Source: Promethearchaeota archaeon
GTDB taxonomy: Archaea; Asgardarchaeota; Lokiarchaeia; Sigyniarchaeales; SOKP01
Direction: 5' to 3'
Assembly: GCA_004524365.1 (NCBI GenBank)
Contig: SDNL01000001.1
Coordinates: 1 to 55,831, forward strand
Length of the DNA stretch: 55,831 nucleotides
The notes under the pieces: generated by a model
The model's database searches: none
Told to the model about the DNA's origin: nothing
The model's input: the letters and a program-made list of their open reading frames with translations, nothing else
Program-made: the position numbers and the translations under genes
Part shown: piece by piece, positions 27,774-50,782 of the stretch
How the letters are laid out: each line of letters opens with the position of its first letter
Position numbering within the stretch: position 1 is the stretch's first letter

Positions 27774-27871
27774 CTATACAAAGTAAAGGAATTGAACGAT
27801 TTAAGATAAATCTCATATATATAACAAAAACATATGTTTTTAAGTATGTTCTATATTATTTTTGTAGAAAT

Positions 27872-32550: not shown

Positions 32551-32585
32551 ATTTAAATAATATTGTTAAAAATTAAAAAAATATA

Positions 32586-33809: not shown

Positions 33810-33810
33810 T

Positions 33811-34932: not shown

Positions 34933-35021
34933 AATCAAAAATTTAAAGTGGTTTTTTTATTTCCACATTTTTTTCATTATTTTTAAAAAAAAAATAAAAC
35001 ATATATGTGTAGGCAAACAAC

Positions 35022-35840: not shown

Positions 35841-35846
35841 AAATAT

Positions 35847-36431
35847 GTGATTAAAAAAATGCAAAAAAATATTTATGAGAAAGAAAACATTTCAATTATT
35901 ATTTTTAATGTGGGCTGGGAAGAATTCGCGATCGATCTCTTAGATGTTAAAGAAATTATACAGGCAGGACAAGTAAGAAAACTTCCAAAAAGTATGGATT
36001 TTATCGATGGAATTTATAACTATCGCGGGGAAATCATCCACATTATTAATTTACGTAAAAAACTTAATTTGGATGAGTATAAATTATATAGATCCAAAAA
36101 GGAATTATATGAAAGTAAAAAAGAGGGAGAAACTGTTAGTGAAGAGCAAATAGGAGGTTCTAATGGGGGGACAGCAAAAAAATATATAATAATTGTTAAT
36201 GTTGATAACAAAAATATTGGATTTTATGCTGATAAAATTCATAATGTTTCTCAAATTAACAAGAGCGATATTATAGACCTCACTCCTATATTTCAAACAA
36301 GCGTGGATGTTAATTATATTAAAGGGGTTATTCGATTTGAGGATCGACCTCGAATCCTAATAAATCTTAGTAAAGTATTAACCGAAGCCGAAGCTCAAAT
36401 GATTCAAAAAGAATTAGATTCAAGAAAATAA
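35847..36431 (+). CDS. cheW: CheW coupling protein (with a ~35-aa insertion)
   Basis: FAIDLLDVKEIIQ...P......GIYNYRGEIIHIINLRKKL and a C-terminal IKGVIRFEDRPRILINL. GTG start; an ATG lies at 35859. Confidence 0.8.
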   Translation: MIKKMQKNIYEKENISIIIFNVGWEEFAIDLLDVKEIIQAGQVRKLPKSMDFIDGIYNYRGEIIHIINLRKKLNLDEYKLYRSKKELYESKKEGETVSEEQIGGSNGGTAKKYIIIVNVDNKNIGFYADKIHNVSQINKSDIIDLTPIFQTSVDVNYIKGVIRFEDRPRILINLSKVLTEAEAQMIQKELDSRK

Positions 36432-36446
36432 AATAAAAAAAAAGAG

Positions 36447-36845
36447 TTGATAAATTATATGCCAGAAAAGAAAAAAATACTTGTTGTAGATGATGCAGCC
36501 TTCACTCGTAATATGCTTAAAAAGATAATAGATAATGCAGACTATACAAAGGTAGTTGGAGAGGCATCAGATGGAAACGAAGCAATAAAACTTTACAAGC
36601 AGTTAAAACCTGATTTAGTTACGATGGATCTGGTCATGCCAGTTAAAGGTGGTATTGAAACAATAGAAGAAATTAAAAAATTTGATGATGGTGCCTTAAT
36701 CATCTGTGTATCTGCATTAGGTCAGGAAGCATTAGTACTAGAGGCTGCAAAAAAAGGGGCAAAGGATTTTATCCAAAAACCTTTTAAGAGCGATCAAGTA
36801 ACAGAAGTTCTAGAACGTACACTCCTAAATAATAAAGGCCATTAA
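36447..36845 (+). CDS. cheY: CheY response regulator
   Basis: KILVVDDAAF, DLVTMDLVMP (phospho-Asp), VSALG and IQKPF. A single REC domain of ~125 aa. TTG listed; ATG at 36459. Confidence 0.9.
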   Translation: MINYMPEKKKILVVDDAAFTRNMLKKIIDNADYTKVVGEASDGNEAIKLYKQLKPDLVTMDLVMPVKGGIETIEEIKKFDDGALIICVSALGQEALVLEAAKKGAKDFIQKPFKSDQVTEVLERTLLNNKGH

Positions 36846-36867
36846 AAATTGAAGGTGAAAATTAGCA

Positions 36868-38976
36868 ATGTCATCAAAAGAAGATAAAGATTTTAAACTA
36901 TTTGTGAAAGAAGCAGAAGAATTAATAAGAAAGATCGAAGAGAGTATATTAAATCTTGAAGAAAATTTTAAAAACAATGATCCTGTAGAACAACTTTACT
37001 TTTCATATCATAATCTTAAAGGAATGACTGGAATGGTTGGATTTGACAATTTCTCAAAACTTTGTCACAGCTTAGAAAATCTGTTAGACGAGATTAAGGA
37101 TTATGAAAAACGTGCAGAAAATAAAGGTCAATTGATTGGGTTATTATTTGAAAGTCATGATGTAATGAGAAATCTTATAAAGAAAATAAAAGAAAGCGAT
37201 AAAGAGGATTTAAATCGACAGATTTTAAAGGAATTCGAGAAGAGAATAAACAATCTAAAAACATCAACCACCACCAGTGATTATGATATTACCTTCTTTA
37301 AACCTCTTTCTAAGGAAGAATTTGAAAAAATTACTTCAAAAAGCAATTATAAATTTTTCAAGGTTTATATTGAAATTCAAGATACTTGTGTATTTAAGAA
37401 AGTAAGACTTTTCATCATCTTTCGTGCATTAGATGAGATTGGAAGGATATGTTCAAGCAGTCCGGAGCCAACTGTGTTAGAAAAGGGTGCGATAGATAAT
37501 GATTTCGAAATCTATTTTATGACGAAGGAATCTAAAAATGTGATATCTCATAGAATAGATGAAATCTTAGAAATAGAAAGCCGGAAAATAACGGAGATAA
37601 GTTCTGATGAATTTTATAATTTGATTAGCGAATATTGCGAAAAAATGCTTGATCAAATGGAAGGAAATAGTCTCCCTACAGAAGAATATTCTATTGACAG
37701 TACCCAAGAAAGTACAGTATCTTCTGTAATTGCGGACAACTTTGACGATCAGAATAAAATTACTTCAATTAAAGTAGATATTCAGACCTTGGAAACCCTT
37801 ATGGATTATTTCGGTGAGTTAGTAATCTTAAAAAATCAAATGTCCCAGATTCTCCAAAAAAATAGGGAAAGAGAAGGATCAAGATTATTTGATGACATGG
37901 ATAAACTTTTTTTAGAAATTCAAGAAATTATTTTTCAACTAAAACTTGTAAGAGTTGAAAAAACATTCCGACGATATCGAAGATTGGTTAGAGATGTTGC
38001 AAAGGAGACAGGAAAACAAATAAAATTTGTTCTAAAAGGATTAGATGTTGAAATAGATAGAAAGGTATTAGAAGAACTAAATAGTCCTTTAATTCATCTT
38101 CTAAGAAATGCCATATATCATGGGATTGAAAGTCCAGAAGAAAGAAATAAAAAGAATAAGGATATAGTTGGTACTTTAAGACTTGAATCCTATAGAAAGG
38201 CTGGATCAATATATATTAAAGTAAAAGATGATGGAAGAGGGTTAAATTATGAAGGAATTAGACGAAAAGCTATTAGAAATGGAATGTACTCACCTGAAGA
38301 GGCTGGAAAATTAACTAATGAACAACTTGAAAAAATTATTTTCCGCTCGGGCTTTTCGACACTTAGAGGAGCAGATCAGATATCTGGAAGAGGAATGGGT
38401 TTGGCGATTGTTTCAGAAAAGGTGGAAGAATTAGGTGGATCTGTAGAAGTTAACTCTGTAGAAGAGAAAGGAACAGAATTTATTTTAGATGTTCCCTTTA
38501 CAAGAGCGATCTTAAAAGCACAGATATTTTCAGTTGGGGGGGATCTATATGCTATTCCCATTGAAAATATAAAACAGATATACTTTTACAAAAGGGAAAA
38601 TCTGGATTATATAAAAGGAGTTGAACATTATAGACTTGATTCTGAATTGGTTCCACTAATTCGAGTGGACGAATATCTTGGTCTCTCTTCAGCTACTAAT
38701 AGTAATGAATTCTCTCTCGAAAAGTCTAACTCCTCCACAAAAATCGCAATTTGGTGTAAAAAGGATGAAGAAAATTCTGCAGTATTAGTAGTGGATGAAA
38801 TTTTACAACAAATGGAGGTTGTGATTAAGCCCTTTAAATCAAAATATTCTAAATTCCGTTCTGTTTTAGGTGTCACTATAACAGGAAGAGGAAAGATCTG
38901 TATGGTAATGGATGTAATGGATCTCATCTCTTCAATATCTAGAGAAGTTACAAAATCAATTAGTATCTCAAACTAA
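36868..38976 (+). CDS. cheA: CheA histidine kinase
   Basis: Hpt motif YHNLKGMTGMVGF (His codon 37009..37011), a dimerisation region, the HATPase domain (HLLRNAIYHGIE, DDGRGL, GRGMGLAIV) and a C-terminal CheW-like P5 domain. Confidence 0.9.
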   Translation: MSSKEDKDFKLFVKEAEELIRKIEESILNLEENFKNNDPVEQLYFSYHNLKGMTGMVGFDNFSKLCHSLENLLDEIKDYEKRAENKGQLIGLLFESHDVMRNLIKKIKESDKEDLNRQILKEFEKRINNLKTSTTTSDYDITFFKPLSKEEFEKITSKSNYKFFKVYIEIQDTCVFKKVRLFIIFRALDEIGRICSSSPEPTVLEKGAIDNDFEIYFMTKESKNVISHRIDEILEIESRKITEISSDEFYNLISEYCEKMLDQMEGNSLPTEEYSIDSTQESTVSSVIADNFDDQNKITSIKVDIQTLETLMDYFGELVILKNQMSQILQKNREREGSRLFDDMDKLFLEIQEIIFQLKLVRVEKTFRRYRRLVRDVAKETGKQIKFVLKGLDVEIDRKVLEELNSPLIHLLRNAIYHGIESPEERNKKNKDIVGTLRLESYRKAGSIYIKVKDDGRGLNYEGIRRKAIRNGMYSPEEAGKLTNEQLEKIIFRSGFSTLRGADQISGRGMGLAIVSEKVEELGGSVEVNSVEEKGTEFILDVPFTRAILKAQIFSVGGDLYAIPIENIKQIYFYKRENLDYIKGVEHYRLDSELVPLIRVDEYLGLSSATNSNEFSLEKSNSSTKIAIWCKKDEENSAVLVVDEILQQMEVVIKPFKSKYSKFRSVLGVTITGRGKICMVMDVMDLISSISREVTKSISISN

Positions 38977-39011
38977 AAAAAATAAAGTTAAAATAAATAA
39001 GAGGTAAAAAA

Positions 39012-42000
39012 ATGGGTTTTAAACGCGTTTCAAAGGAAGAATTAGAACAAAGTAAGGCTCCACCCTTCTTAGGTCCTCCTCTTCAAACTACTGAAAGATT
39101 AGAATTACTCGGAAAAGAAAGTTTGAAATCAAAAAAGCAATTTACTCATAAAGAATCAAATATATTCCTACTAGCACAAGAAAATTTTAAATTCGAATAT
39201 ACTAAAAATGGGGCCCTTGATAATTTCGAAGGAATTGGAGATATTACAATAGTAAATAACTCAGAAAAGAATCGTATATGGGATGTTAACCTAAGTTATT
39301 CCGGAACAGAGAACATTTTTGAATATTACACTTTTATTAATGAAGATAAAAAAACGAATTTAGGTAATTTTGAACCTCAAACAAATAAAAATCTTGATTA
39401 TAAAATAAAAGATACAAAAAATATTATAAATCCAATCAAAATATTTGAAAAAATTACGGTTTCAAATCTAAATAAGGAAAATTTGGGAACTAAAATAAAA
39501 AAGCGAAAGATTAGGAAACTTGAAAAAGAAATTCAGAAAAAAAAGGAGAAAACCAAAGTTCAAATTGAAGAAAAATATGGAAAAAAAATCAAGAGTCTAC
39601 AATCAGAAATAAAAAATAAAGATAATGATATAGATAAGGTTTTAGAAACTTTATCAAAACATACTAAGAAAAAAAATCAGCTTCAAAAAGATATAAATAC
39701 ACTAAAAAAAGTGATTAATAACCTTAAGAAAGAAAAAAAAGAAGAAAAATATGAAATCCTTGAACGATATCTCAAAAAGGAAGACCTAAATCGTAATATT
39801 AATGAATTATTAGAAGAAACCAAACAAAAACTTGAATCATTGAAATCTAAAATTCCTGAGATCAAGAAGAATTATTCTAATAAACAAAAGATGATTAAAA
39901 ATGAGATTGAAGAGAAATATAATCAGAAAATAACTCAAGCTAATAAAGAAGTAGAAAAAAGAGAAGATGAATTGGCAAGAGCCTATAAGAAAGAAGAAGA
40001 GTGGACTAAAAAAGAGGATAGACTAGAAAATGTAGTTGGAAAAATTGAAGATAGATTAAAATCTTTAGAAGATAAATTTAAGATCAAAAAGGCTGAAACC
40101 GAACTTAAGGAAAAAGAAGGTCAATATAAAAAAGCAGAAGAAAAAGCCGATAAATTCGCTGATAAGGTTAAATCACTTAAAAAAAGTATTAAAAATCTTA
40201 AAAAAGATATTAAATCATATAAAAAGAATAAAAATAAAGAATTGGATTCCCAATTAGAGAATCTTACAGATGAAGAAGAAAATAAAATTGAAGAATATAT
40301 GGATAAAATTGACAAAAATAAGGGACTTCTTAAAGGAATTCAGAATATAATTGAAAAATATGAAGAAGATCTAAAGGAATATAGAGAAAAATTGAAGGAA
40401 CATCAAGTAAAACTATTAGATACAGGAAAAGAAATAGAAAATTGGATGGAGAAGAAAGAAGAAATTAGATTAAAAATTAATGGATTACAAGATGAAGTTG
40501 AAAGACTAGAAAAATTAAAGGAAAAAGAACTTAAAAAGGAAATATCAAGGATTAAAAAGAAGAAAGAAAAAAGAGAGCAAAGAATCTTAGATGGGTATGA
40601 TGATATGATTGGAGAAAAATTAAGAGATAACTATTATCTTTTATTTAATACACAAAATATGCTCAACTATTCAATAAATATTGAAAATGACTCAGAAAAT
40701 AAAGTAAAAGAAGTTAAATTAGCAAAACAATTCTCTGATGAATTTAGTGATTTTAAATATGAAAGTTCTTCTGTTTCTGATGTAAATATTAATAAAAACA
40801 CAATAATTTTTTCAATCCCATCCTTAGATCCTGGGGAAAAAGCTGAGATTACCATACATACATCTATAAAGCCTATTGAGAGAAAAATTATCGGAACAGG
40901 AAATATTCAACTCTCATATATATATGAAAATCGTCTTATTTCCGGTTTAAAATTTGAAGAATTAAATGGATATTCGCATGCAATGCATGCTATGAAAATT
41001 AAAGAAAAGGAAACAGCTCCTAATAAATGGACTTGTCAGATGATTTTTAAAAATAATAGCGATATCAATATGAAATTAAATTCTATTTTAGTGCTGGATA
41101 AAGAGAAAAGAAATAAATATTTGGACTTAGACTTTAATTCAGATAAAGATGGGAAACTAGTAAAACCCCAAGAAACATTTTTCAGCGAAAAATGGGAAGT
41201 TGAAGATAAAAATGAACCAAAATTTTATCGAAAATTAAATTATTCTATTACTCATAAAACTGAGAAGAAGAGTCTTATGAATCTTAATTTGGAAGAATCA
41301 ATTTTTGAGATCATTGATTTATCCGTGGAGAAAAAGTTTACAAAATCGAAGATTAAATCATATGAGGGATCCGATCTTAGTTGCACTCTTACTCTTAAAA
41401 ACACAGGTACAATACCAATTAAGGGAATGGTCGTTAAAGAGATAATTCCAAAAGATTTTCTTCCCCCTCAAGATCTTTCCAGTTTTTCAATCGCAACCTC
41501 ATCTGGAAAGGATATTGCGGATAAAGTTCAAATTGAAATCTTGCCAGACGATCAAGATGCTTCAAGCTCTCATGAAATAAGTATTAGGGTTAATTTAGAA
41601 AATATCAAACCATTAGAATTAATCAATGTGAATGAGAATATTAAAATAACTTATCCATTTAAGGCAATTAAACCTGATCATACAAAAGAATACAATTTCC
41701 CGCTTAATTTCACTTCTTATTATCCTAAAGAGAAGAAAAGTCCCGAAGATTTCTATTATATTTCAGGAACACTTCCTGCTCAAAAGCTTCCAAATTTAGA
41801 CGTGATCCATCAAAGACGGAATTTATTAATCGCAAAAGAGATCTTTCCTGGACGAAATGTGGATGAATTTGCAATCAGTCTTATAGTAAATAATAGCTCG
41901 AATATAGAAATAACAGATATCAAGATTGATGATACATTACCAAATTCTATAGAAGTGGTGTCCTCTAATAAGGAATACAATATCCTCGATTCTGATCTTG

Positions 42001-42134
42001 AGAGAGCTGATACTATTTCATTTACAATTGAGAGTATTTTACCTTTCCAAGAAGAGGAAATAAGATATTATGTAAGAAGTAAAGGAGATGAAACCTTAGA
42101 TCAAGAAAAATTAGAATCATATTTATTAACTTAA
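39012..42134 (+). CDS. Large cytoplasmic protein: N-terminal beta module, ~380-aa K/E coiled coil, then several Ig-like (CARDB/DUF11-like) beta-sandwich modules
   Basis: No signal peptide or TM segment. The central region (about 39490..40630) is heptad-rich and K/E-rich. A recurrent motif of type x-(I/L)-x-(V/I)-x-N-x-S/G-x-x-x-I-x-(D/E)-(V/I) appears at least five times (ITIVNNSEKNRIWDVNL, INIENDSENKVKEVKL, MIFKNNSDINMKLNSIL, LTLKNTGTIPIKGMVV, LIVNNSSNIEITDIKI). Confidence 0.5.
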   Translation: MGFKRVSKEELEQSKAPPFLGPPLQTTERLELLGKESLKSKKQFTHKESNIFLLAQENFKFEYTKNGALDNFEGIGDITIVNNSEKNRIWDVNLSYSGTENIFEYYTFINEDKKTNLGNFEPQTNKNLDYKIKDTKNIINPIKIFEKITVSNLNKENLGTKIKKRKIRKLEKEIQKKKEKTKVQIEEKYGKKIKSLQSEIKNKDNDIDKVLETLSKHTKKKNQLQKDINTLKKVINNLKKEKKEEKYEILERYLKKEDLNRNINELLEETKQKLESLKSKIPEIKKNYSNKQKMIKNEIEEKYNQKITQANKEVEKREDELARAYKKEEEWTKKEDRLENVVGKIEDRLKSLEDKFKIKKAETELKEKEGQYKKAEEKADKFADKVKSLKKSIKNLKKDIKSYKKNKNKELDSQLENLTDEEENKIEEYMDKIDKNKGLLKGIQNIIEKYEEDLKEYREKLKEHQVKLLDTGKEIENWMEKKEEIRLKINGLQDEVERLEKLKEKELKKEISRIKKKKEKREQRILDGYDDMIGEKLRDNYYLLFNTQNMLNYSINIENDSENKVKEVKLAKQFSDEFSDFKYESSSVSDVNINKNTIIFSIPSLDPGEKAEITIHTSIKPIERKIIGTGNIQLSYIYENRLISGLKFEELNGYSHAMHAMKIKEKETAPNKWTCQMIFKNNSDINMKLNSILVLDKEKRNKYLDLDFNSDKDGKLVKPQETFFSEKWEVEDKNEPKFYRKLNYSITHKTEKKSLMNLNLEESIFEIIDLSVEKKFTKSKIKSYEGSDLSCTLTLKNTGTIPIKGMVVKEIIPKDFLPPQDLSSFSIATSSGKDIADKVQIEILPDDQDASSSHEISIRVNLENIKPLELINVNENIKITYPFKAIKPDHTKEYNFPLNFTSYYPKEKKSPEDFYYISGTLPAQKLPNLDVIHQRRNLLIAKEIFPGRNVDEFAISLIVNNSSNIEITDIKIDDTLPNSIEVVSSNKEYNILDSDLERADTISFTIESILPFQEEEIRYYVRSKGDETLDQEKLESYLLT

Positions 42135-42135
42135 A

Positions 42136-42140
42136 GGAGG
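42136..42140 (+). promoter_or_regulatory. Shine-Dalgarno-like GGAGG, 6 nt upstream of the ATG at 42147
   Basis: The sequence aaaGGAGGaaaaaaATG lies in the 12-nt gap after the preceding stop. This is consistent with an internal ribosome-binding site in a polycistronic mRNA. Confidence 0.45.
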
Positions 42141-42146
42141 AAAAAA

Positions 42147-43004
42147 ATGAATTATCAATATTACAAAACATTAATGGACAAATCTGAGGAGAATTTATTT
42201 TTCTTAATTGAGAAAATAGTACCTGCACCTTTAAAGGAAGAATTAGGTCTTTTTTTAGAAGGATTTAACCTTGGAAAAATTAAAAAATCTTCTCTTGAAG
42301 AGAATTTTATTCAGATTAATCCATTAAACAAAAATTATGCTGACTTATCTAAACTCAATTCCCAACAATTAAAGGAAATATACGAAACTTTCATTAGTAG
42401 AGAAAAAAACGATAAAAAGGCGGTAAAATGGAGATTGCTCCGGTATTTGAGAATTCAAAAAGATATACAATTAGAAACACTTCACATTAATGTTGATATG
42501 AATGAAGATAATGCAGTGGATATAATCTTCGAAACTAAAAATCATAAGTATTACTTTATAAATTGTAGTTATATTCTAGAAAAGGAATATTATTACAATT
42601 TAATAGAAAAACTTATCGCCTTTTCTAAAAAAATTAACCTTAAACCTGAAAAAATCGTATTTTCTGCTCATAAAACCTATAGAGATATTCCTTATAAAGA
42701 AGATATTCAAGTAGGTAATATAAAATATGAGATAGAAAAAGAAATCTGGGTAGAATGGACAGAATTAGAAAAACCTTTTAATGGGGAAGATCTTCTTCTA
42801 ATCCTGAGTAATAATGAAAAAGATTTAGAACTTGCGGGATTTAATTTTACCAGCATCCAAACATTGTTGGATTATGTGTATAGATATTCTAAAGGAGGAC
42901 AAATTGCTATATATAAACAGCCTGGGTTTTTCTCGGCAAAAAGTAATGAAAATCCTCAAATTGAATTAATTTGGAAAGGAATTATGTTAAAAAATAAAAT
43001 TTAA
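42147..43004 (+). CDS. Hypothetical protein between cheA and cheC (CheF-like role possible but not recognised)
   Basis: A 285-aa ORF with a Shine-Dalgarno motif and tight operon spacing. I could identify no motif. Confidence 0.45.
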   Translation: MNYQYYKTLMDKSEENLFFLIEKIVPAPLKEELGLFLEGFNLGKIKKSSLEENFIQINPLNKNYADLSKLNSQQLKEIYETFISREKNDKKAVKWRLLRYLRIQKDIQLETLHINVDMNEDNAVDIIFETKNHKYYFINCSYILEKEYYYNLIEKLIAFSKKINLKPEKIVFSAHKTYRDIPYKEDIQVGNIKYEIEKEIWVEWTELEKPFNGEDLLLILSNNEKDLELAGFNFTSIQTLLDYVYRYSKGGQIAIYKQPGFFSAKSNENPQIELIWKGIMLKNKI

Positions 43005-43033
43005 ACATATTTTAAACAAAGAATAAAAATGAG

Positions 43034-44977
43034 ATGAGAAATATGGTAGAGACATTATCTGACAGTAAAAATATAAATGTTGTAATAATTGGAATAAAAA
43101 GTGAGAAATATCTAATAAAAGTAGAAAAAGTAAAGGAAATATATGTTCCAAAGGATAATATAGTACCTATCCCATTAGCAGATAAAACAATTACAGGTGT
43201 AATCGATATTAGGGGAGAAGTCTATTCTATTTTATCTTTGAGAAAAAAAATATATGATGAGGAAAATCTCCATCATATTCATAAAGATAATCGAGTGCTA
43301 TTATTAGAAACTAATGGTGTAAATCTTTCAATACTTGTTGATGAAGTAATAGGCGTTAAAGAAATTCCAACTTCGGTTTTTAATCATGGTGCGCCAATTA
43401 TTGAAACCGATCTTGATATAAAATTCATTGAATCCGTTGCAATTATTGAAGAAAATACCTATATTCTATTAGATATCGATGCCTTCATTAAAAGTTTCAA
43501 TATTGATTTAAACTATAATAGGATTGAACCAATTTCGCCTTCGCGAAAAGAAACTAAGGGAGGAAGTTCCAATATAAGTATTGAAACAAAAAGACCGGAT
43601 ACATCTCCCATATCCTCTAGTGAAACTTACGAAATAGGAGGAAAATTATCTGAATTAAAAGATAAAATTAAATTAAATCCTGAACAAGAGGATATGCTTA
43701 AAGAGATTGGAAATATTGGCTCAGGAAATGCAGTGACTGCACTTTCTCGATTGATTAAGAAGAAAATTGATATCGATTTAACTAATGTTGGAATTGTTTC
43801 CTTTGACAATTTGACGGATCAATTTGGAGGTCCAATGGAAAAAGTATGCGGAATATTCTCCCAAATTAAGGGGGCGCCCCAATCATCGATCCTCCAAGCT
43901 TTTGAGCTGAAACCGCTAATGAAATTGATTTCATCTTTAATTGGTGATGATTCTCAAATAGATCCAGAAAATGTATCATCTAAAAAGGATCTTGATGACT
44001 TTGCGATCTCAACTATTACTGAAATGGGAAATATATTAGCGGGTCATTATGCATCTGCTTTAGCAGATTTGACGGGAACTAAAATGATGATCAATGTCCC
44101 TGAGTTTTCTGTTAGTGATATCGGTTCAATTGGGAAATTTTTAAGCCAAGAATTAAAAACAATCTATACATATATAGTGGTCATAAAAACATCAATTAAG
44201 GTTGTAGACTATGAATTAAATGGAGTATTTCTTTTCATTCCTGGCTTGGATACACTTTATAAATTCTTTGATCAGTTGGGAATCAATTATAAACCACAAG
44301 AATCATCAAGAAAATTCCATAAGAAATCTTTAAATTCGGATAATTTAGAACTTACAGAAATTCAAAGAGATGCTCTTCAAGAAATTGGTAATATTGGTTC
44401 TGGTAATGCCGCAAATGCTTTAGCTAAAATGGTGAATCAAAAAGTAACAATTGCTATTCCAAAGGTAGAAATGATGACTATTGATAAATTTTCTAAGAAG
44501 TTACAAACAAATGATAACCTATATACATCTTGGAGTAATGTAAAAGGGAAAACTCGCGCAACGGTGTTAACAATTTTCCAAATATCTGATATCATTGAAA
44601 TAACTGCTATTCTAACTGATGATAAGAAGAAAAAACAATTGGATCTCAGAAAAAAGTATGATAGCGTGGAAAAGTTCCCCGAAATGTATCAAAGTGCTAT
44701 GAGTGAGCTAGGAAATATTCTAGCTTCAAATTACGTATCCTCGCTCGGAGATCTCTTAGATATTCGATTAATGACGGACCCTCCTGATATGATCATAGAT
44801 ACGAAAGAACAGTTATTTACAAATTTAAGAGACCAAATTGGATTTCTAGAAAAATTATCTTTAGTAATAACTACTGCTGTTATAATCACTGATATCAAAA
44901 TAGAAGGAGCCTTTTTATTTGTTCCTGAAATAGAAACTCTACATGAACTTCTAAAAGCGCTTGAAAAGTTCTATTAA
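43034..44977 (+). CDS. cheC: CheW-like domain fused to two CheC-type phosphatase domains
   Basis: N-terminal CheW-like domain (YLIKVEKVKEIYVP...ITGVIDIRGEVYSILSLRKKI). Then two CheC units, each with LKEIGNIGSGNAVTAL / LQEIGNIGSGNAANAL and E-x2-N-x22-P-type sites (TEMGNILAGHYASALADLTGTKMMINVPEF; SELGNILASNYVSSLGDLLDIRLMTDPPDM). Confidence 0.75.
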   Translation: MRNMVETLSDSKNINVVIIGIKSEKYLIKVEKVKEIYVPKDNIVPIPLADKTITGVIDIRGEVYSILSLRKKIYDEENLHHIHKDNRVLLLETNGVNLSILVDEVIGVKEIPTSVFNHGAPIIETDLDIKFIESVAIIEENTYILLDIDAFIKSFNIDLNYNRIEPISPSRKETKGGSSNISIETKRPDTSPISSSETYEIGGKLSELKDKIKLNPEQEDMLKEIGNIGSGNAVTALSRLIKKKIDIDLTNVGIVSFDNLTDQFGGPMEKVCGIFSQIKGAPQSSILQAFELKPLMKLISSLIGDDSQIDPENVSSKKDLDDFAISTITEMGNILAGHYASALADLTGTKMMINVPEFSVSDIGSIGKFLSQELKTIYTYIVVIKTSIKVVDYELNGVFLFIPGLDTLYKFFDQLGINYKPQESSRKFHKKSLNSDNLELTEIQRDALQEIGNIGSGNAANALAKMVNQKVTIAIPKVEMMTIDKFSKKLQTNDNLYTSWSNVKGKTRATVLTIFQISDIIEITAILTDDKKKKQLDLRKKYDSVEKFPEMYQSAMSELGNILASNYVSSLGDLLDIRLMTDPPDMIIDTKEQLFTNLRDQIGFLEKLSLVITTAVIITDIKIEGAFLFVPEIETLHELLKALEKFY

Positions 44978-45672: not shown

Positions 45673-46626
45673 ATGATAAATTCATCACTTTTAGATACTT
45701 TACTTGAAAATTTTCTAAATCAAGTTAATGATTTAACTGCCGTGTTGGTTGTCGATGCAGATGGACTTATAATCGCTCAAGAATCAACCAAAGACTTTGA
45801 TGAACAAATAATCGCTGCCATTATGGCTATTCTGGATCAAACAATAAATAAGATTAAGAAATATGCCGAAACTTCCTTTGGGAGTGGGACTCTAGATACT
45901 AATGAATTCCGCTTGTTTTATTTAGAATTAGGAGGAGATTTCCCTGTTATATTCGTAATAGTAACCGATTCGTACACAAATATCGATAAATACATCCCTT
46001 ATTCATACCTAGTCGCCGAAAAAGTATCTCTCTTAATAAATAATACAAATGATATTAATGTTAGACTTCCAGAACTCCTTGAAAATGGAGAATTAAGATT
46101 TAATTCTTGCAAGAGTTCTAACAAACGTACCAAGAATTATATTTTGGTAATTGGTCCTCAAAAAGTAGGGAAAACGGCATTAGTAAATAAATATACAAAT
46201 AATGCATTTATTGAACATTATAAACCAACTATAGGATTATCAATAGTTAAAAAAGAACTTCAAATCTCTAAGAAAATTCAATCTATTCTTTATCTATTTG
46301 ATATGGGTGGATTTAAGGCATTTGGTAAAGTAAGGAAGCATTTTTATGAATCGATTGATATTAAAACAATAGTACTTGTTTTTGATTATTCCAAAGAATC
46401 TACTTTAGATAAAATTAATGATTGGTTTTATGAAGTCAATTTATTTAATAAACAAGAAAGCATTCAATATGTTTTAGTTGGAAATAAAATTGATAAAATT
46501 GATTATAGAGAGGAAATTAGAAAAAAAGCTGAGAATATAGCAAATGAATATAATTGTAGGTTATATGAGACATCCGCTCTTACAGGACAGGGTATTGATG
46601 AACTATTTATGAATATAGCCTTTTAA
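45673..46626 (+). CDS. Roadblock/LC7 domain fused to a Ras/Rab-like small GTPase
   Basis: The N-terminal VNDLTAVLVVDADGLIIAQES...IAAIMAILDQT...FPVIFVIVTD is a classic Roadblock/MglB-like pattern. The C-terminal G domain has G1 GPQKVGKT (46153..46176), G2 PTIG, G3 DMGGF (46300..46314), G4 GNKID and G5 ETSA. Confidence 0.75.
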   Translation: MINSSLLDTLLENFLNQVNDLTAVLVVDADGLIIAQESTKDFDEQIIAAIMAILDQTINKIKKYAETSFGSGTLDTNEFRLFYLELGGDFPVIFVIVTDSYTNIDKYIPYSYLVAEKVSLLINNTNDINVRLPELLENGELRFNSCKSSNKRTKNYILVIGPQKVGKTALVNKYTNNAFIEHYKPTIGLSIVKKELQISKKIQSILYLFDMGGFKAFGKVRKHFYESIDIKTIVLVFDYSKESTLDKINDWFYEVNLFNKQESIQYVLVGNKIDKIDYREEIRKKAENIANEYNCRLYETSALTGQGIDELFMNIAF

Positions 46627-46674: not shown

Positions 46675-48756
46675 TTGATGCCAATAAAGATGAATAAAAA
46701 AATTAACGCCGTGAAAGCCAAGTTTATTAATCCAATAAAAGAACTTAGTATTCCAACTTTCATTATTGACTCAAATCATAACGTAATTGAATGGAATAAA
46801 GCCATTAAGAACTTGACAGGAGTAAGGCGAAAGGAGATACTTGGCACTTCTAATGCTTGGAAGGCCTTTTATTCAGAAAAGCGCCCTACTTTAGCAGATC
46901 TCTTACTGGATGGAAAGATAGAAGAGATAGAAACATATTTTCAAAACTTTTCAAAGGCAAAGCATTGTCTTAGAGGTTATACTGCTGAGAAATGGCTTGA
47001 AATAAATTATGAGAGATTATATCTTATCATGACTGCTACCGCAATTCTGGATAAAAAAGGGGAGATCATTCAAATTATACAAACAATTGAAGATAGGACA
47101 GAATCAAAACATATAAAGGATAGAAAAGAGTTTTTAAATTCAATATTTCGGCATGATGCAAATAATATGATAAATGTATGCCACGGGTTTCTCAAATTAT
47201 TGGAAAAAACTGAATTAACAGAAGTGCAGAAGGACTATCTTCAAGAAGCTATTAATGCTTCGCGTGGAGTAATCAGCATCATTGAAAAAGTAAGTAAACT
47301 TCAAAAAGTTGGAAGGGAAGAGACTCAAGACCTGTCATTAGGGGATTTAATTCAAGAAATTGTAAATAAAAATCAATTCCAAGCAAAGGAAAAAGGTATT
47401 ACGATTGAAGTATGTCTTCCAGAATTTAGCTCAAATGTCCAAGCAGGGGAATTGCTTGAAGATGTGTTTATTAATATAATTGGAAATTCATTGCAACATA
47501 GTCAATGCGACAAAATTAAAATCTCGGGAAGAGAAAGTAAGGATGCAATTATTTGTTGTATTGAAGATAATGGAAAGGGAATAAAAGAAGAAGATAAAGA
47601 AATGATATTTAATCAAGGATTTAAGAGAGGAAAAAGTGCTGGATCAGGATTGGGGTTATTTCTTGTTAAAAAGATTACTAATAATTATGGGGCGAAAGTT
47701 TATGTAAAGGATTCTCAACTTGGTGGTGTGAAATTCGAAGTTCAATTAAAGAAGAGTAAAGGAAGACCAGAAAAAAGAAGAAATTCATTATCTCAAATTG
47801 AAAATGATTTTCATCTCACAGAAGATTCTTTACTTAATAATGAACATCATCTCCAAAATTTAATTGTTGTGGTCGATGATAATTTACAATTTTTAACCTA
47901 TATGAAAGTTTTACTAGAAAATTATGATTACAAAGTGGAAACTTTTAGAAGTGCTGTAAATGCCTTATCATATATTGAAAATCAGGACTATCACTCTATT
48001 CCTGATCTTATTATTTCTGATATACGCATGCCAGAACTCTCAGGATATGAATTCTTTAAGAATCTTTCTTCTAATCCAAAATTAAATCGCATTCCTTTTA
48101 TATTCCTTTCTGGGTTGAGCTCGAAGGATGATATTAGATTAGGAAAATATCTTGGAGCTGATGATTATATTACCAAACCGGTTTATGAAGAAGATATCCT
48201 TGCTTCGATTAAAGGAAAACTCCGTAGAAAAAAAGCAGGGAGCGTGTTTGAAACGGAAATTGATAAATATTTAAATTTAGAACAAAAGCGAGACAATAAA
48301 CTTGAAAATATGAAGTTTGATGAGGAAATCGTTCTTTTTTTGATATTTTGGGATGATAAAAAAGGTCCAAAATTAATTGAACAATATCCTGAGAAAAGCA
48401 GAATTTCACTTTCTGTTGATAAACTTGGTACTCAAATATTTCAAGCAATCGTTCCAATATATGGGCAATCAAAAAATATTGTAAATGCGGAAGATGTATT
48501 ATTTAGAATCGAAAATATCAATAAACATGCGTATCTTTACTTTGATGCATTTTATGATGAGTCAAAGCGATCTAAACAGACAGAATTTATGCTTTCAGTA
48601 ATCGCTCCAACGATAAGTTATTTTGAATCATTAAAATTAAAAAAAATATTATCTAATCTCTCAAATATATTAAAAGAAGATAACGACACGAAAAAAATAA
48701 ATTTCAGGCAGTATTGGAAAGACATTTTAGGCATTTTAAGTAAATTTGAAAATTAA
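46675..48756 (+). CDS. Hybrid sensor kinase: PAS - HisKA - HATPase - REC - extra C-terminal alpha/beta domain (longin/Roadblock-like, tentative)
   Basis: H-box FRHDANNMINV, N-box NIIGNSLQHS, G-boxes EDNGKGI / GSGLGLFLVKKI. REC domain (VVVDDN...LIISDIRMPELSGY...ITKPV). The final ~150 aa (IVLFLIFWDDKKGPKLIEQYPE...) have no kinase-related motif. TTG listed; ATG at 46678. Confidence 0.8.
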   Translation: MMPIKMNKKINAVKAKFINPIKELSIPTFIIDSNHNVIEWNKAIKNLTGVRRKEILGTSNAWKAFYSEKRPTLADLLLDGKIEEIETYFQNFSKAKHCLRGYTAEKWLEINYERLYLIMTATAILDKKGEIIQIIQTIEDRTESKHIKDRKEFLNSIFRHDANNMINVCHGFLKLLEKTELTEVQKDYLQEAINASRGVISIIEKVSKLQKVGREETQDLSLGDLIQEIVNKNQFQAKEKGITIEVCLPEFSSNVQAGELLEDVFINIIGNSLQHSQCDKIKISGRESKDAIICCIEDNGKGIKEEDKEMIFNQGFKRGKSAGSGLGLFLVKKITNNYGAKVYVKDSQLGGVKFEVQLKKSKGRPEKRRNSLSQIENDFHLTEDSLLNNEHHLQNLIVVVDDNLQFLTYMKVLLENYDYKVETFRSAVNALSYIENQDYHSIPDLIISDIRMPELSGYEFFKNLSSNPKLNRIPFIFLSGLSSKDDIRLGKYLGADDYITKPVYEEDILASIKGKLRRKKAGSVFETEIDKYLNLEQKRDNKLENMKFDEEIVLFLIFWDDKKGPKLIEQYPEKSRISLSVDKLGTQIFQAIVPIYGQSKNIVNAEDVLFRIENINKHAYLYFDAFYDESKRSKQTEFMLSVIAPTISYFESLKLKKILSNLSNILKEDNDTKKINFRQYWKDILGILSKFEN

Positions 48757-48908
48757 AATCTAATTAATCAATAATTTCAACAATAGGGTTAAAAATTAAA
48801 TATCAGCTTTAAGGAGTTTATTTTTTTAGTTAAAATTAAATAGAAAAACTATATTAAATAAATACACACTATTTATAAAAATAAAAATGTATTAAAAACA
48901 TAAATTAA

Positions 48909-49844
48909 TTGATTCAAACTATGAAAAGTCTAAAGCTAATAATTGCAGGTTTAGATTATGCTGGGAAGACAAGTTCCATTATTGCTCTTAGAGAAAAATA
49001 TAATTTTTACGAAAAAGTGGAAAATTTGAAGCCCACGGTCAAGATTGAATATAGTAGTTTCAACTTTCTCAATCAATGGGAAGTTAATATTTGGGATATG
49101 GGTGGACAAGAGAAGTATAGACAAATTTATTTAGATAAACCAGAATATTTCGCAGATACAAATTATTTCTATTATTATATTGATATTCAAGATGAAAAAA
49201 AGATCTCCGAATCAATTAATTATTTTGAAGAATTATTAACAATTTTGAAAGATTTTAATTATTCTAATAAAATAATAATCTGTTTTCACAAATATGACCC
49301 AAAATTAAGAAGAAATAAAGATATTCTTGAAAGAATTACAAGTGTAAAGAAAAAACTTAAACAAAATGAACATTTTGAGTTTAAATTCTTTAGAACTTCA
49401 ATTTTTGATATTTCAACTCTTTCTAAAGCAATCTCATATTCATTAAATAGCTTAATTGATTTTAGTGTTTTAAAGCTAATTTTAAAGGGATTAATTCGAA
49501 AATTTAATGGAAATTATGCAATTTTATATACTGATTCAGGTGTGATACTTGTTGATTTTTATAAAGAAATTTTAGATTCGATTGAATATGAAGAGAAAGT
49601 ACGTCAATCAATTAACCGTGACCTTGTACTCATTCAAAAATTGAAGGATGATAATGTTGAATTCAATGAACGAGTAGATTATGATGAAGAGATTAAATAT
49701 TTAAAAAAATATGAGATTGGGGACAATATTTTCTTTCTAAAGATGAACGCTCCAAAAATGAGAGAGGAAAAAATACAATTATTGAAAAATAACTTTCAAA
49801 ATTTCGAAAACGACCTCCAAGAGATATTTTCAAATAATTCGTAA
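48909..49844 (+). CDS. Rag/Gtr-like (Arf-related) small GTPase with C-terminal Roadblock-like domain
   Basis: G1 GLDYAGKTS, G2 PTV, G3 WDMGGQEKYR (49092..49109). G4 is HKYD (49287..49298), the HKxD variant characteristic of Rag/Gtr GTPases rather than NKxD. The C-terminal ~125 aa (GNYAILYTDSGVILVDFYKE...) look Roadblock-like. The 311 aa length is close to eukaryotic RagA. TTG listed; ATG at 48921. Confidence 0.65.
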   Translation: MIQTMKSLKLIIAGLDYAGKTSSIIALREKYNFYEKVENLKPTVKIEYSSFNFLNQWEVNIWDMGGQEKYRQIYLDKPEYFADTNYFYYYIDIQDEKKISESINYFEELLTILKDFNYSNKIIICFHKYDPKLRRNKDILERITSVKKKLKQNEHFEFKFFRTSIFDISTLSKAISYSLNSLIDFSVLKLILKGLIRKFNGNYAILYTDSGVILVDFYKEILDSIEYEEKVRQSINRDLVLIQKLKDDNVEFNERVDYDEEIKYLKKYEIGDNIFFLKMNAPKMREEKIQLLKNNFQNFENDLQEIFSNNS

Positions 49845-49853: not shown

Positions 49854-49910
49854 TTTTTTTATTTTAATTATTTTTATCTCATTTTTATCTCATTTTTATC
49901 TCATTTTTAT
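49854..49910 (+). terminator. Oligo-T tracts downstream of the Rag-like gene (probable archaeal intrinsic terminator region)
   Basis: A T7 run at 49854..49860 lies 10 nt after the stop codon, followed by four T5 runs within an 11-bp tandem repeat. Archaeal RNA polymerase terminates at oligo-dT stretches. Confidence 0.4.
49870..49910. repeat. 11-bp tandem repeat, ATTTTTATCTC x about 3.7
   Basis: Read directly: atttttatctc atttttatctc atttttatctc atttttat. Confidence 0.85.
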
Positions 49911-50170: not shown

Positions 50171-50782
50171 ATGTTGGTAAATATTTTATGTCCGTATTGT
50201 AAGAAAATGTTTCGAAAGGAAATTACAAATACAAAAAAATCTGGGACTCTTTATTCCACACTAATAAAGGCCCAAGATGGACATGAAGGATGTGGTGCAT
50301 TTTTAGCATTTATCGATAATAACGGAATGCATCGGGGCTCTCAAAAAATTGATCATATTGAAGAAGCACATTCCGAAAATGAAACTTATATTAATCAAGC
50401 ACTTAAAAATATAAATGAATTGGATGAAAAAATTAGATTCTATCATCTTAAAATCCCTAAAACAAAATTCAAACGTTCCTTTGAGTATAAAGTGGCCAGC
50501 GTAAAGGATAGGGCATTTATGAGTTCACGCACTTATAAAGGCTTATTTAATTTTGTTAAAGATTGTAGGAATGATAATATGTTTGGAATGCTTTCTTTAG
50601 ATTCGGATGCTGAACTTGATGGCTCATTAGTCTATGGAAAATATATGGGGTTACTCTATGTTCTCTATTGGAATAATCAAAAAAAAATAAGAAATAGTTC
50701 TTGGGATGAAATCAAAGGCTATACCAATCTTACTGTTGAAAAACTTATTGAGTTGTACGAATTGATCGATTTATTCTTTTAA
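50171..50782 (+). CDS. Zinc-ribbon protein, paralogue of 32586..33236
   Basis: CPYCKKMF...GCGAFLAFIDNNGMHRGSQKIDH aligns with CPVCDKKD...CGHSFQVYIDKNYVPRGYQKIDF. The C-terminal alpha/beta region is possibly Roadblock-like. Confidence 0.5.
   Translation: MLVNILCPYCKKMFRKEITNTKKSGTLYSTLIKAQDGHEGCGAFLAFIDNNGMHRGSQKIDHIEEAHSENETYINQALKNINELDEKIRFYHLKIPKTKFKRSFEYKVASVKDRAFMSSRTYKGLFNFVKDCRNDNMFGMLSLDSDAELDGSLVYGKYMGLLYVLYWNNQKKIRNSSWDEIKGYTNLTVEKLIELYELIDLFF

Follow-up and report, generated by a model that had tools for sequence, protein, structure and literature searches.

Gene content of the locus

The 55.8-kb window, i.e. the whole stretch of DNA analysed in this study, contains a complete Che gene cluster. 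This cluster comprises genes for CheB, CheR-CheD, an LCIB-type carbonic anhydrase, two unassigned ORFs (one of them on the minus strand) and an MCP, as well as a 272-aa ORF, CheW, CheY, CheA, a 1040-aa DUF11 protein, a 285-aa ORF and CheW-CheC-CheX. Located 3' of the Che cluster, all on the plus strand, are a 174-aa gene, a gene encoding a Roadblock-Ras-family GTPase (RblRas), a hybrid sensor kinase gene, the gene of a Rag/Gtr-like GTPase (RagL), and a 203-aa gene. Rfam did not detect any RNA family in the window. The individual features are as follows.

26214..44977, plus strand: Che gene cluster, assigned by Pfam, with the same gene order in the relative L092
45089..45613, plus strand: gene of a 174-aa protein between CheW-CheC-CheX and RblRas, kept in related Che clusters
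45673..46626, plus strand: RblRas, N-terminal Roadblock followed by a Ras-family GTPase (Pfam Ras 108.8 bits, Robl_LC7 25.9 bits)
46675..48756, plus strand: hybrid sensor kinase directly 5' of RagL (Pfam and AlphaFold2)
48331..48753, plus strand: longin-like domain of the kinase, aa ~553-693 (AlphaFold2 topology and motifs)
48821..48881, plus strand: signals in the spacer 5' of RagL, read from the sequence and weak, in DNA of ~26% GC
48921..49844, plus strand: RagL ('Rag/Gtr-like GTPase'), 307 aa from ATG 48921, Gtr1_RagA being the top Pfam match
48921..49463, plus strand: G domain of RagL, aa 5-185 of the 311-aa ORF (motifs and PDB phmmer scores)
49464..49832, plus strand: Roadblock-type domain of RagL, aa 186-308 (AlphaFold2 and Foldseek)
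49854..49910, plus strand: signals 3' of RagL, read from the sequence
50171..50782, plus strand: gene of a 203-aa protein, third in the cassette described below, restricted to loci that also have RagL and the kinase-longin gene (L001, L007, L009, L010)

The RagL gene product

The RagL ORF extends over positions 48909..49844 on the plus strand and encodes 311 aa if counted from TTG 48909. This ORF and the G1, G3, and G4 motifs named in the original prediction are present in the translation. Since the close homologues all begin at the Met equivalent to ATG 48921 (MKSLK or MESLK), this ATG probably is the true start, resulting in a protein of 307 aa. The same length is given in the public annotation of the identical MAG protein EU541_00210 (P0001; Promethearchaeota archaeon). 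With the start at ATG 48921, ~4 residues remain ahead of beta1 and there is no space for an N-terminal amphipathic helix. In a check for lipid-anchor signals, neither Gly2 nor a Cys among the last 6 residues was found in any of 60 homologues.

The G domain contains the motifs G1 GLDYAGKTS, G3/switch II WDMGGQ with the catalytic-type Gln67, G4 HKYD (aa 127-130), and a G5-like FRTSIFD. Homologues of ~310 aa are widespread in MAGs of Promethearchaeota, Thor-, Hod- and Hermodarchaeota. Across 60 homologues the first position of G4 is occupied by H, N or T. HKxD is found in the close RagL clade (>=63% identity) and is scattered beyond it, and NKxD is carried by most homologues at 45-53% identity. 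Hence, HKxD was dismissed as a fixed hallmark of the Asgard RagL family. RagA-D and Gtr1/2 have HKxD instead of NKxD as G4, and in this respect the archaeal family, in which the His is not conserved, differs from the eukaryotic Rags.

Assignment of RagL to the Rag/Gtr family

RagL is an Asgard Rag/Gtr-like GTPase in which a G domain of the Arf/Rag class precedes a Roadblock domain at the C-terminus and which lacks lipid-anchor signals. In the Pfam scan Gtr1_RagA (PF04670) matched aa 9-223 with 84.3 bits (E=1.1e-23; curated cut-off 22 bits). The further matches were Arf (59.5 bits), Roc (34.5 bits), Ras (30.4 bits), and SRPRB (26.9 bits). PDB sequences were ranked in the order Loki Rag-like proteins (8yl2, E=5.7e-26; its Loki relative 8zla, 4.9e-20), RagA and Gtr1 (human RagA 1.7e-13), and finally Arf, with phmmer scores of 54 bits for RagA, 47 bits for Gtr1 and 38.9 bits for the top Arf. 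Judged by the E-values for the Pfam profile and 8yl2, the match of RagL to Rag/Gtr is far beyond chance.

The AlphaFold2 model of RagL reached a pLDDT of 89.7 and a pTM of 0.85. Its C-terminal elements (H186-198, E203-208, E213-218, H224-247, E254-258, E261-270, E273-282 and H286-308) follow the order alpha-beta-beta-alpha-beta-beta-beta-alpha, which is the Roadblock topology; the C-terminal region alone had no Pfam match. When the model was compared to the PDB by Foldseek, the best 40 matches were all full-length Rag/Gtr chains with alignments of 300-334 columns, headed by the Lokiarchaeal structures 8yl2, the 'RagA-like small GTPase from Asgard Lokiarchaeota' (E=1.3e-18), and 8zla. Thus, the earlier proposal that the gene encodes an archaeal Rag-type GTPase, with the G domain at the N-terminus and Roadblock at the C-terminus, is supported by profile, sequence and fold. 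Gtr1_RagA, not Arf, was the best profile, and a Roadblock fold was predicted for the C-terminal part.

Some homologues are annotated as 'ADP-ribosylation factor-like protein' or 'Small Arf-related GTPase', and RagL might accordingly be read as a GTPase of the Arf-like (ArfL/ArfR) type that carries an unrelated extension at its C-terminus. The Pfam Arf profile also scored above its threshold, and Tran et al. (PMC10933270) place the Rag-like class structurally near Arf too. RagL indeed shares the P-loop, WDxGGQ and an interswitch-type G domain with Arf/ArfR proteins (e.g. GerdArfR1, PDB 8oum). But Gtr1_RagA is ahead of Arf by 25 bits, and Gtr1, aligned on the G domain alone, scored higher than every Arf (47 versus <=39 bits). 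Arf structures were matched by Foldseek over ~180 columns only, at E~1e-8, in contrast to 1e-16 to 1e-18 for full-length Rag/Gtr. Furthermore, Arf/ArfR proteins consist of a single domain of ~180 aa and have an amphipathic helix or Gly2 at the N-terminus, whereas RagL has neither of the two and carries an additional ~125 aa with Roadblock topology. The placement of RagL with Rag instead of Arf is based on score rankings (Pfam, PDB sequence, and Foldseek); profile, fold and N-terminus evidence ruled out the Arf-like assignment, which we regard as highly improbable.

RagL is a further member of the Rag/Gtr-like family previously described in Asgard archaea, where such classes were termed 'GTPase-RB' (Tran et al. 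2024, PMC10933270) and 'RagGtr' (Vargova et al., bioRxiv 10.1101/2024.02.28.582541). Rag/Gtr-like Roadblock GTPases count among the established 'eukaryotic signature proteins' of Asgard archaea, and crystal structures exist for two Lokiarchaeal ones. LokiRagO (8yl2) is a homotetramer with GTP and LokiRagM (8zla/9m28) is a monomer, so the oligomeric state is not uniform among Asgard Rag-like proteins. RagL has the phylum, the layout of G domain and C-terminal Roadblock, and the lack of lipidation motifs in common with both. It shares only ~25% identity with them over the structural alignment and therefore belongs to a different paralogue family.

The similarities to RagA/B, RagC/D and Gtr1/Gtr2 include PF04670, the G plus Roadblock layout, the length of ~310 aa, and the absence of a lipid anchor. 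HKxD as G4, DxGGQ in switch II, and a TSI(F/W)D-like G5 are also shared between RagL and the eukaryotic Rags. Full-length fold matches to eukaryotic Rag/Gtr proteins had E-values of 1e-12 to 1e-16 at 17-21% identity. These proteins are obligate heterodimers connected to Ragulator/EGO and TORC1, whereas TOR kinase has been reported to be absent from Asgard archaea (bioRxiv 10.1101/2020.10.19.343400).

Relation to the Che cluster

The original prediction had described RagL as embedded in a Che operon. Its location 3' of a real Che cluster, on the same strand, was confirmed, but the linkage is confined to a narrow clade. No Che gene was present within 10 kb in 78 of 80 RagL-family loci from species-representative genomes, L010 and L011 being the exceptions, and RagL was not found in the Che clusters of the relatives L092, L093, L094 and L095. 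RagL was thus rejected as a conserved component of Che clusters. The suggested link between two nutrient-sensing systems that are normally separate gained little support, and nothing at the locus points to a role of RagL in nutrient sensing.

The conserved GTPase of related Che clusters is RblRas (45673), not RagL. RblRas orthologues close the Che clusters of L092 (64% identity) and L095 (54%; CheA 51%), and RblRas remnants were found in the Che cluster of L093. The 174-aa protein encoded upstream of it (45089), for which no Pfam family was found, gave tblastn identities of 46-76% in L001, L007, L010, L092, L093 and L095. The RblRas gene that closes Asgard Che clusters is a candidate for the chemotaxis output in these organisms.

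Among the 4 neighbors previously listed as Roadblock-like (35022, 45673, 32586 and 50171), this description held for 45673, with a Pfam Robl_LC7 match of E=8e-6, and not for the other three. ORF 35022 had a sub-threshold Pfam match to Fuz_longin_1 (E=0.041), and ORFs 32586 and 50171 had none. A Pfam search at E<=10 with 50171, 45089, 42147, 35022, 32586 and 31054 resulted in sub-threshold noise with Fuz_longin_1 in 35022 as the one lead. A relationship of ORF 35022 to the longin-like domain of the kinase or to the 272-aa P0151 was discarded, as BLASTP found no similarity to either.

The contiguous location of RagL on the same strand as a complete Che cluster may also be taken to mean that RagL and RblRas are downstream effectors of the chemosensory array, by analogy to Frz control of MglA/MglB. 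Phosphoryl groups from CheA/CheY would then enter the kinase-longin protein at its REC domain(s), and thereby act on a GTPase switch governing polarity, protrusions or motility. A precedent is the Frz-RomR (REC)-MglA/MglB pathway of Myxococcus xanthus, a chemosensory pathway that reportedly has a GTPase switch as its output. Both systems tie a Che-type cluster to a small Ras-superfamily GTPase, Roadblock and REC proteins. In support of such a role, RblRas still closes related Che clusters whose CheA identity is as low as 51%, the kinase orthologue in L001 contains an additional N-terminal REC domain that could take phosphoryl groups, and neither archaellum nor CheF-type genes were found within the 55.8-kb window, to which this search was confined. 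However, archaellum genes may be located outside the window, RagL is missing from the four related Che clusters named above, and most of its homologues are encoded far from Che genes. Moreover, the kinase possesses a PAS sensor and HisKA/HATPase domains of its own, which makes an input from CheA unnecessary. The GTPases found here also are Rag-like and Ras-like and not of the MglA type, there being no MglA chain in the best 60 PDB sequence matches; Roadblock is fused to the GTPases in contrast to the separate MglB in Myxococcus, and the candidate GAP is a longin. We consider RagL unlikely to be an output of the Che array.

The kinase and its longin-like domain

The kinase is composed of PAS, HisKA, HATPase and REC domains, a long helix, and a C-terminal longin-like domain. 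Orthologues are encoded at the same position in L001, L007, L010 and L009. The AlphaFold2 model of the REC and C-terminal part had a pLDDT of 90.2. The predicted topology of the C-terminal domain, beta-beta-alpha-beta-beta-beta-alpha-alpha, fits the longin fold. The junction of beta1 and beta2 carries WDDKKGP, and the beta4-beta5 loop contains SKRSK. In the model, W170-D171 end the strand 164-171 and G175-P176 begin the strand 175-182. Within a set of 60 family members, the W is conserved in 58, the G in 57, and the P in 56 sequences; 42 have an Arg in the beta4-beta5 loop and 18 do not.

A GP motif that immediately precedes or opens beta2, together with an Arg finger, has been described as restricted to FLCN, NPRL2, SMCR8, C9orf72, and one Asgard longin class (PMC12290439). 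W33-D34...G38-P39 of C9orf72 (PMC12290439) shows the same spacing as WDxxxGP of the kinase. Predicted fold and motifs make the C-terminal domain of the kinase a candidate longin of the GAP type. It resembles the longins of GATOR1 (NPRL2/NPRL3), FLCN-FNIP and C9orf72-SMCR8 in having WDxxxGP before beta2 and an Arg in the loop, and it adjoins a Rag-like GTPase. The Arg fingers of NPRL2 and FLCN, to which the loop Arg may correspond, are R78 and R164, respectively. In contrast to these GAP complexes, in which two longins form a heterodimer and are combined with DENN or other domains, the kinase longin is a single domain attached to a histidine kinase/REC protein.

Homology searches provided little further information on this domain. 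Pfam did not match the longin-like domain, neither in the window protein nor in the 60 family members. A profile search of PDB sequences gave nothing relevant, and no homology to NPRL2, FLCN or SMCR8 was detected by either of the two methods. Foldseek of the REC plus longin model against the PDB matched REC domains only. A single weak match, to a viral 'Longin domain-containing protein', was obtained by Foldseek in BFVD (E=0.019, probability 0.87). A word-indexed search started from a C-terminal segment of the kinase (174 aa) returned no match, not even the parent protein. An exhaustive HMMER scan found the domain in 153 clusters, mostly as REC fusions; in P0158 it is joined to a GTPase of the Ras family. 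The family resembles in this the Asgard NPRL2-like longins of Liu et al., which are fused to two-component domains. In a metagenome scan for REC-longin proteins, the patterns used (DDYITKPF etc.) matched generic bacterial response regulators, and L096 (1.7 kb) was the only genuine case.

In L090 and L091, a stand-alone REC-longin regulator is encoded beside a PAS histidine kinase and a GTPase of the Arf/RagA class with 182 aa. Altogether, only three independent arrangements stand behind the pairing of longin and GTPase. Counting against the pairing is also that the longin assignment is based on predicted topology and motifs.

A three-gene cassette in a narrow lineage

The PAS-histidine kinase-REC-longin gene, RagL, and the 203-aa gene form a cassette that is located 3' of a Che cluster already ending in RblRas, in one narrow Promethearchaeota (Loki-type) lineage. 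The three genes co-occur in the window, L001/L002, L010, L007/L011 and L009. Adjacency to Che is restricted to the window, L001/L002, L010 and L007/L011; the L009 contig ends just upstream of the cassette. All three genes are missing in L092, whose Che cluster is collinear apart from this; there RblRas is directly followed by LMWPc-BacA, the genes found after the cassette in L007. In the window the cassette is followed by ribosomal protein L2. The 203-aa protein, with CPYC...HEGCG at its N-terminus and 78% mean column identity among 4 copies, had no match in Pfam or the PDB, including a profile search of PDB sequences.

Outside the cassette, RagL-family genes are found in other surroundings. 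No longin or two-component neighbor was present at 78 of 80 RagL-family loci, and among these loci the longin domain is confined to those with the cassette, which makes the pairing of RagL and longin kinase clade-specific. Even homologues at 63-68% identity are encoded in unrelated contexts (L003, L008, L012 and L013).

An AT-rich spacer of 164 bp separates the kinase gene from RagL, and 326 bp separate RagL from the 203-aa gene. The first spacer contains a T7 run (48821-48827) ~65 nt past the kinase stop and a TATA-like TTTATAAAAA at 48872-48881, 40-49 nt ahead of ATG 48921. Another T7 run (49854-49860) starts 10 nt past the RagL stop codon, and is followed at 49869-49910 by ~3 copies of the 11-nt tandem repeat catttttatct. 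This T7 run and the repeat together are a probable transcription stop. As read from the sequence, the T-runs and the 164-bp AT-rich spacer suggest that RagL may have its own transcript.

A monocistronic RagL would be consistent with an ordinary Lokiarchaeia paralogue whose neighbors are incidental and whose gene order simply stems from a recent ancestor shared by a few genomes. Its role would then be apart from the kinase and Che, e.g. in membrane or protrusion regulation, as generally proposed for Asgard GTPases. This agrees with the distribution of the family loci, which mostly lack Che genes and the longin domain, with the unrelated contexts of rather close homologues, and with the observation that GTPase genes of MK-D1 are generally found outside of operons with regulators (Tran et al., PMC10933270). 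As Lokiarchaeal genomes contain dozens of small GTPase, Roadblock and longin genes (PMC10933270), some adjacency is expected by chance. On the other hand, the cassette is intact between genomes whose proteins share just 57-66% identity, despite downstream flanks that differ (L2 versus LMWPc-BacA). Its three genes are present or absent jointly, in L007 the kinase and RagL genes are just 34 bp apart, and a REC-longin protein is again encoded beside an Arf/Rag-class GTPase in L090 and L091. Incidental neighborhood thus appears possible but rather doubtful.

Proposed function of the cassette

We favor the explanation that RagL belongs to a three-gene cassette in which a phosphorelay-controlled longin GAP acts on RagL, and assign to it a probability of about 50%. 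The PAS domain of the kinase would sense a signal, upon which the kinase would phosphorylate its own REC domain. Once REC is phosphorylated, the longin domain attached to it may become more or less available. The WDxxxGP pocket and the conserved Arg of the longin domain would provide a GTPase-activating platform for RagL, comparable to NPRL2/GATOR1 and FLCN on the Rags. The Roadblock domain of RagL could mediate dimerization or docking, for which its counterpart in RblRas is a possible partner. The adjacency to Che may permit cross-talk with the chemosensory array, but would not be needed for the module. A GEF-type role of the longin domain toward RagL is possible but less likely.

The more useful feature of the locus is the adjoining kinase with its candidate GAP longin, rather than the adjacency to Che. 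Asgard GTPases rarely share operons with Roadblock or longin regulators, which complicates the matching of GAPs and GEFs to their GTPases (PMC10933270), and for the GP-motif longins of Asgard archaea the partners have not been identified (PMC12290439). The locus suggests a specific pair, i.e. a GP-motif longin on a kinase-REC phosphorelay encoded directly 5' of a Rag-like GTPase. The kinase longin and RagL move jointly in evolution, and the trio of kinase, REC-longin and Arf/Rag-class GTPase recurs elsewhere. Longin and RagL therefore represent a defined pair, amenable to laboratory expression, on which GAP activity can be assayed. Should the pairing be true, it would show how longin GAPs regulated Rag before TOR existed.

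A more far-reaching idea, which we consider improbable, is that the cassette represents a prokaryote-style precursor of the GATOR1/FLCN-Rag switch. In this lineage it would be connected to a chemoreceptor array of which RblRas already is a conserved component and which is read out by GTPase switches. In that case a histidine kinase phosphorelay would directly gate a GP-motif longin GAP on a Rag-like GTPase. Loki-type chemosensing without an archaellum would then be read via GTPase switches acting on polarity and protrusions, not via a rotary motor, similar to Frz-MglA.

A Rag-like GTPase with a Roadblock domain

The 55.8-kb window has a GC content of about 30% and carries archaeal genes for TFIIB, Nop5, GatD/E, an Lsm-type protein and an archaeal-type SAM synthetase. 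Eukaryote-like small domains unrelated to the GTPase studied here occur in a zf-AN1 protein (310 aa, 1348-2283) and in an Lsm plus Lsm_C protein (64-480). The ORF 48909-49844 (+) is present, and its product is identical in sequence to a 307-aa hypothetical protein of a Promethearchaeota (Loki-type Asgard) MAG. ATG 48921 is most likely the start of the gene, termed RagL (48921-49844, 307 aa), because the corresponding Met is the first residue of close homologues.

The original prediction of a Rag-like GTPase with a C-terminal Roadblock domain was borne out by profile, PDB sequence, model and Foldseek evidence, and all G-motifs cited in its favor were found in the ORF. The top Pfam match was Gtr1_RagA (84.3 bits, aa 9-223), followed by Arf (59.5), Roc, Ras and SRPRB; NCBIfam returned only a generic small-GTPase domain under cut-off. 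Among PDB sequences the best matches were the Lokiarchaeal 'GTP-binding proteins' 8yl2 (E=5.7e-26) and 8zla (4.9e-20), then human RagA (1.7e-13), yeast Gtr1 (about 2e-11) and many Arf/Arl proteins (6.6e-9 or higher). In the AlphaFold2 model, built with 60 homologues as input (pLDDT 89.7, pTM 0.85), the G domain is followed by residues 186-308 in the order alpha-beta-beta-alpha-beta-beta-beta-alpha, which is Roadblock topology. In the Foldseek search against the PDB, ranks 1-40 were taken by full-length Rag/Gtr chains only, with alignments of 300-334 columns, headed by 'Homo tetrameric RagA-like small GTPase from Asgard Lokiarchaeota (LokiRagO)' (1.3e-18), and Arf structures appeared from rank 42 onward (about 1e-8), with the G domain only. 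Hence, neither Arf/Sar nor unrelated GTPases are the best matches, and a Roadblock fold is predicted.

The HKxD motif proposed as G4 is present in RagL, but its His is variable across the family and NKxD is found in most homologues at 45-53% identity. The G domain contains a catalytic-type Gln67 within DMGGQ. Neither Gly2 nor a C-terminal Cys was found in the RagL family, and intrinsic membrane-anchoring signals are absent from RagL.

Asgard Rag-like GTPases with a Roadblock domain are an already known kind of protein. Such fusions have been described with unknown function, in a study that also reported Asgard GTPase genes to lie generally outside operons with Roadblock or longin genes (Tran et al. 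2024, PMC10933270). 'Gtr1/RagA GTPase' is among the listed Asgard eukaryotic signature proteins (PMC9834061), and Vargova et al. (bioRxiv 10.1101/2024.02.28.582541) recovered a RagGtr clade with eukaryotic sequences nested among Asgard ones. The PDB matches of RagL include two Lokiarchaeal Rag-like proteins with crystal structures released in 2025-2026. RagL itself falls in a separate paralogue family whose proteins are about 310 aa long. Its hundreds of members (322 proteins in one search, 412 loci in another) are distributed over Promethearchaeota and Thor-, Hod- and Hermodarchaeota MAGs.

The neighboring Che cluster

The Che cluster in the window is real. Its genes and those following it are:

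26214, CheB, first in order
27872-29986, CheR-CheD, an unusual single-protein fusion of 704 aa
30097-30900, LCIB-type beta-carbonic anhydrase
33661, MCP
35022-35840, 272-aa protein without assigned function, sub-threshold Fuz_longin_1 match (E=0.04)
35847, CheW
36447, CheY
36868, CheA
39012-42134, 1040-aa DUF11/'CLIPPER' protein without assigned function
42147-43004, 285-aa protein without assigned function
43034-44977, CheW-CheC-CheX, an unusual single-protein fusion of 647 aa
45089-45613, 174-aa protein without assigned function
45673-46626 (+), RblRas, a Roadblock(N)-Ras-family GTPase of about 317 aa
46675-48756 (+), kinase of 693 aa, PAS-HisKA-HATPase-REC plus an unannotated C-terminal domain of about 150 aa, longin-like part about 48331-48753
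48921-49844 (+), RagL
50171-50782 (+), 203-aa protein with N-terminal CPYC...HEGCG, a possible zinc ribbon

Ribosomal protein L2 follows. For comparison, Che clusters of relatives were located via CheA homologues (loci L092-L095). The CheW-CheC-CheX fusion is kept in every related cluster examined, and CheR and CheD are two separate genes in L095. The carbonic anhydrase lies inside or beside the cluster in three genomes, including L092 (2390-3184) and L093 (20797-21216). The 272-aa, 1040-aa, 285-aa and 174-aa genes keep their positions among the che genes in L092, L093 and L095, and to some extent in L094; they look like uncharacterized core components of Asgard Che clusters.

RblRas is the GTPase linked to the Che cluster

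It had been proposed that RagL belongs to the Che operon and links two nutrient-sensing systems. The gene does lie beside a Che cluster, but in species-representative genomes only 2 of 80 loci, L010 and L011, have a Che gene within 10 kb of a RagL-family gene, and the linkage is absent from L092-L095. L001/L002, L010 and L007/L011 share the gene order of the window between CheA or DUF11 and the 203-aa gene, and their RagL copies have 86%, 83% and 66% identity with that of the window; in L007/L011 LMWPc-BacA takes the place of L2 downstream. In L009 (71%) the kinase, RagL and a 208-aa gene are present and the contig ends upstream of them. RagL homologues at 63-68% identity occur in unrelated gene contexts. 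The linkage is confined to the narrow clade of the window, L001/L002, L010 and L007/L011.

In L092 (CheA 64% identical) the cluster is complete up to and including the 174-aa gene and RblRas (18825-19772). LMWPc-BacA come directly after it, and the kinase, RagL and 203-aa genes are all absent. The rearranged cluster of L095 (CheA 51%) ends with an RblRas orthologue (21203-22085, 54% identity) 7 nt after CheC. RblRas is the last gene of related Asgard Che clusters even at 51% CheA identity and altered che order. The L093 cluster (CheA 60%) stops past the 174-aa gene, and RblRas fragments (19885-20133, 14-385) lie beside a group II intron reverse transcriptase and a transposase. In L094 the cluster comprises only CheY-CheA-DUF11-279aa. 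In this comparison the GTPase with a stable link to such Che clusters is RblRas, not RagL, and the kinase, RagL and 203-aa genes form a cassette of three that is gained or lost together. In the Asgard Che system RblRas is a candidate for a conserved component or for the output, and its conserved position is of interest in its own right.

Co-transcription of RagL with the che genes in the window is doubtful because T7 runs (48821-48827 upstream, 49854-49860 just past the stop) and a TATA-like box (40-49 nt 5' of the ATG) flank the gene, although such signals are weak in DNA this AT-rich. The sequence TAAGGAGTTT followed by a T-run occurs twice, at 48810-48827 (about 55 nt past the kinase stop) and at 49842-49860 (RagL stop codon), and about three copies of the 11-nt unit catttttatct lie just 3' of RagL (49869-49910). 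RagL as a Che operon member joining two nutrient sensors is weakly supported, and nothing in these data speaks for a nutrient-sensing role. The locus is better described as a two-component/longin/Rag-like cassette beside a Che cluster.

In the group at 45-53% identity, another Ras/Arf-type GTPase often lies within 10 kb of the RagL-family gene (L005 and many of the loci L014-L064), seen as 30-36% tblastn matches to the RblRas query, which may reflect conserved pairing or cross-matching. In L005 the nearby gene (12749-14539) encodes an Arf/Ras protein of 596 aa that also has a zinc ribbon.

A longin-like domain in the upstream kinase

The most informative feature of the locus is carried by the upstream kinase. 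Pfam and PDB sequence searches with its last approximately 150 residues gave no match. In an exhaustive HMMER scan, which covered 1.84 billion representatives, the domain occurred in at least 153 clusters, mostly REC plus domain proteins of about 295 aa annotated as Lokiarchaeota response regulators; other fusions involve a Ras-family GTPase, RsbRD_N, DUF1638, PAS-HATPase and TPR repeats. The AlphaFold2 model of the REC and C-terminal part (pLDDT 90.2) shows REC, a long helix and beta-beta-alpha-beta-beta-beta-alpha-alpha, which is longin topology. The longin fold is a provisional assignment: the Foldseek PDB list was saturated by REC matches, and the sole longin match, obtained with BFVD, was a weak one to a viral 'longin domain-containing protein' (E=0.019).

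A WDxxxGP motif is near-invariant in the family (W in 58, G in 57 and P in 56 of 60 members), with WD closing beta1 and GP opening beta2, and an Arg of the beta4-beta5 loop is kept in 42 of 60. A 2025 paper reports just such a GP motif, positioned beside the arginine finger and either directly preceding beta2 or opening it, as specific to the GAP longins FLCN, NPRL2, SMCR8 and C9orf72; it also finds the motif in a class of Asgard longins, for which it raises ArfR or Rag/Gtr as possible GTPase partners (PMC12290439). W33-D34...G38-P39 of C9orf72 (PMC12290439) has the same spacing as the kinase motif. The kinase longin domain and RagL form a testable candidate GAP-GTPase pair, which together with the conserved RblRas gene gives the locus its interest.

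The analysis shows a Rag-like G domain, a Roadblock domain and a cassette with a kinase-REC-longin protein. In the mechanism proposed, the PAS domain would sense a signal, and autophosphorylation would be followed by transfer to the kinase's own REC. Phosphorylation would control the longin domain via the long connecting helix, and this domain could act as GAP on the neighboring RagL, to which it would contribute its loop Arg. Dimerization or docking may be the task of the RagL Roadblock domain, with that of RblRas as one candidate partner. The closest functional precedent is the Myxococcus Frz-RomR-MglA/MglB system, in which a chemosensory system drives a small GTPase/Roadblock switch. The Che array may feed into the cassette, for example through the extra N-terminal REC of the L001 orthologue (7406-9871). 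This REC is found in the kinases of L001/L002/L010 (approximately 821-830 aa) and is absent from those of the window (693 aa) and L007 (686 aa).

The 203-aa protein gave no Pfam or PDB sequence match. It was found only together with kinase-longin and Rag-like genes, in four copies with 78% mean column identity.

Both stand-alone REC-longin regulators that could be placed on long contigs (2/2) adjoin a 182-aa G-domain-only GTPase, for which Arf and Gtr1_RagA score equally, and have a PAS histidine kinase nearby. L090 (2838-6912) has the order HTH, GTPase, MASE3-PAS-kinase, REC-longin, and L091 (5191-7968) has GTPase, REC-longin and a second REC-longin in tandem. The trio is thus arranged in three ways, one each in the window cassette, L090 and L091. 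Both L090 and L091 also have small HTH_5 and AsnC-type regulators nearby.
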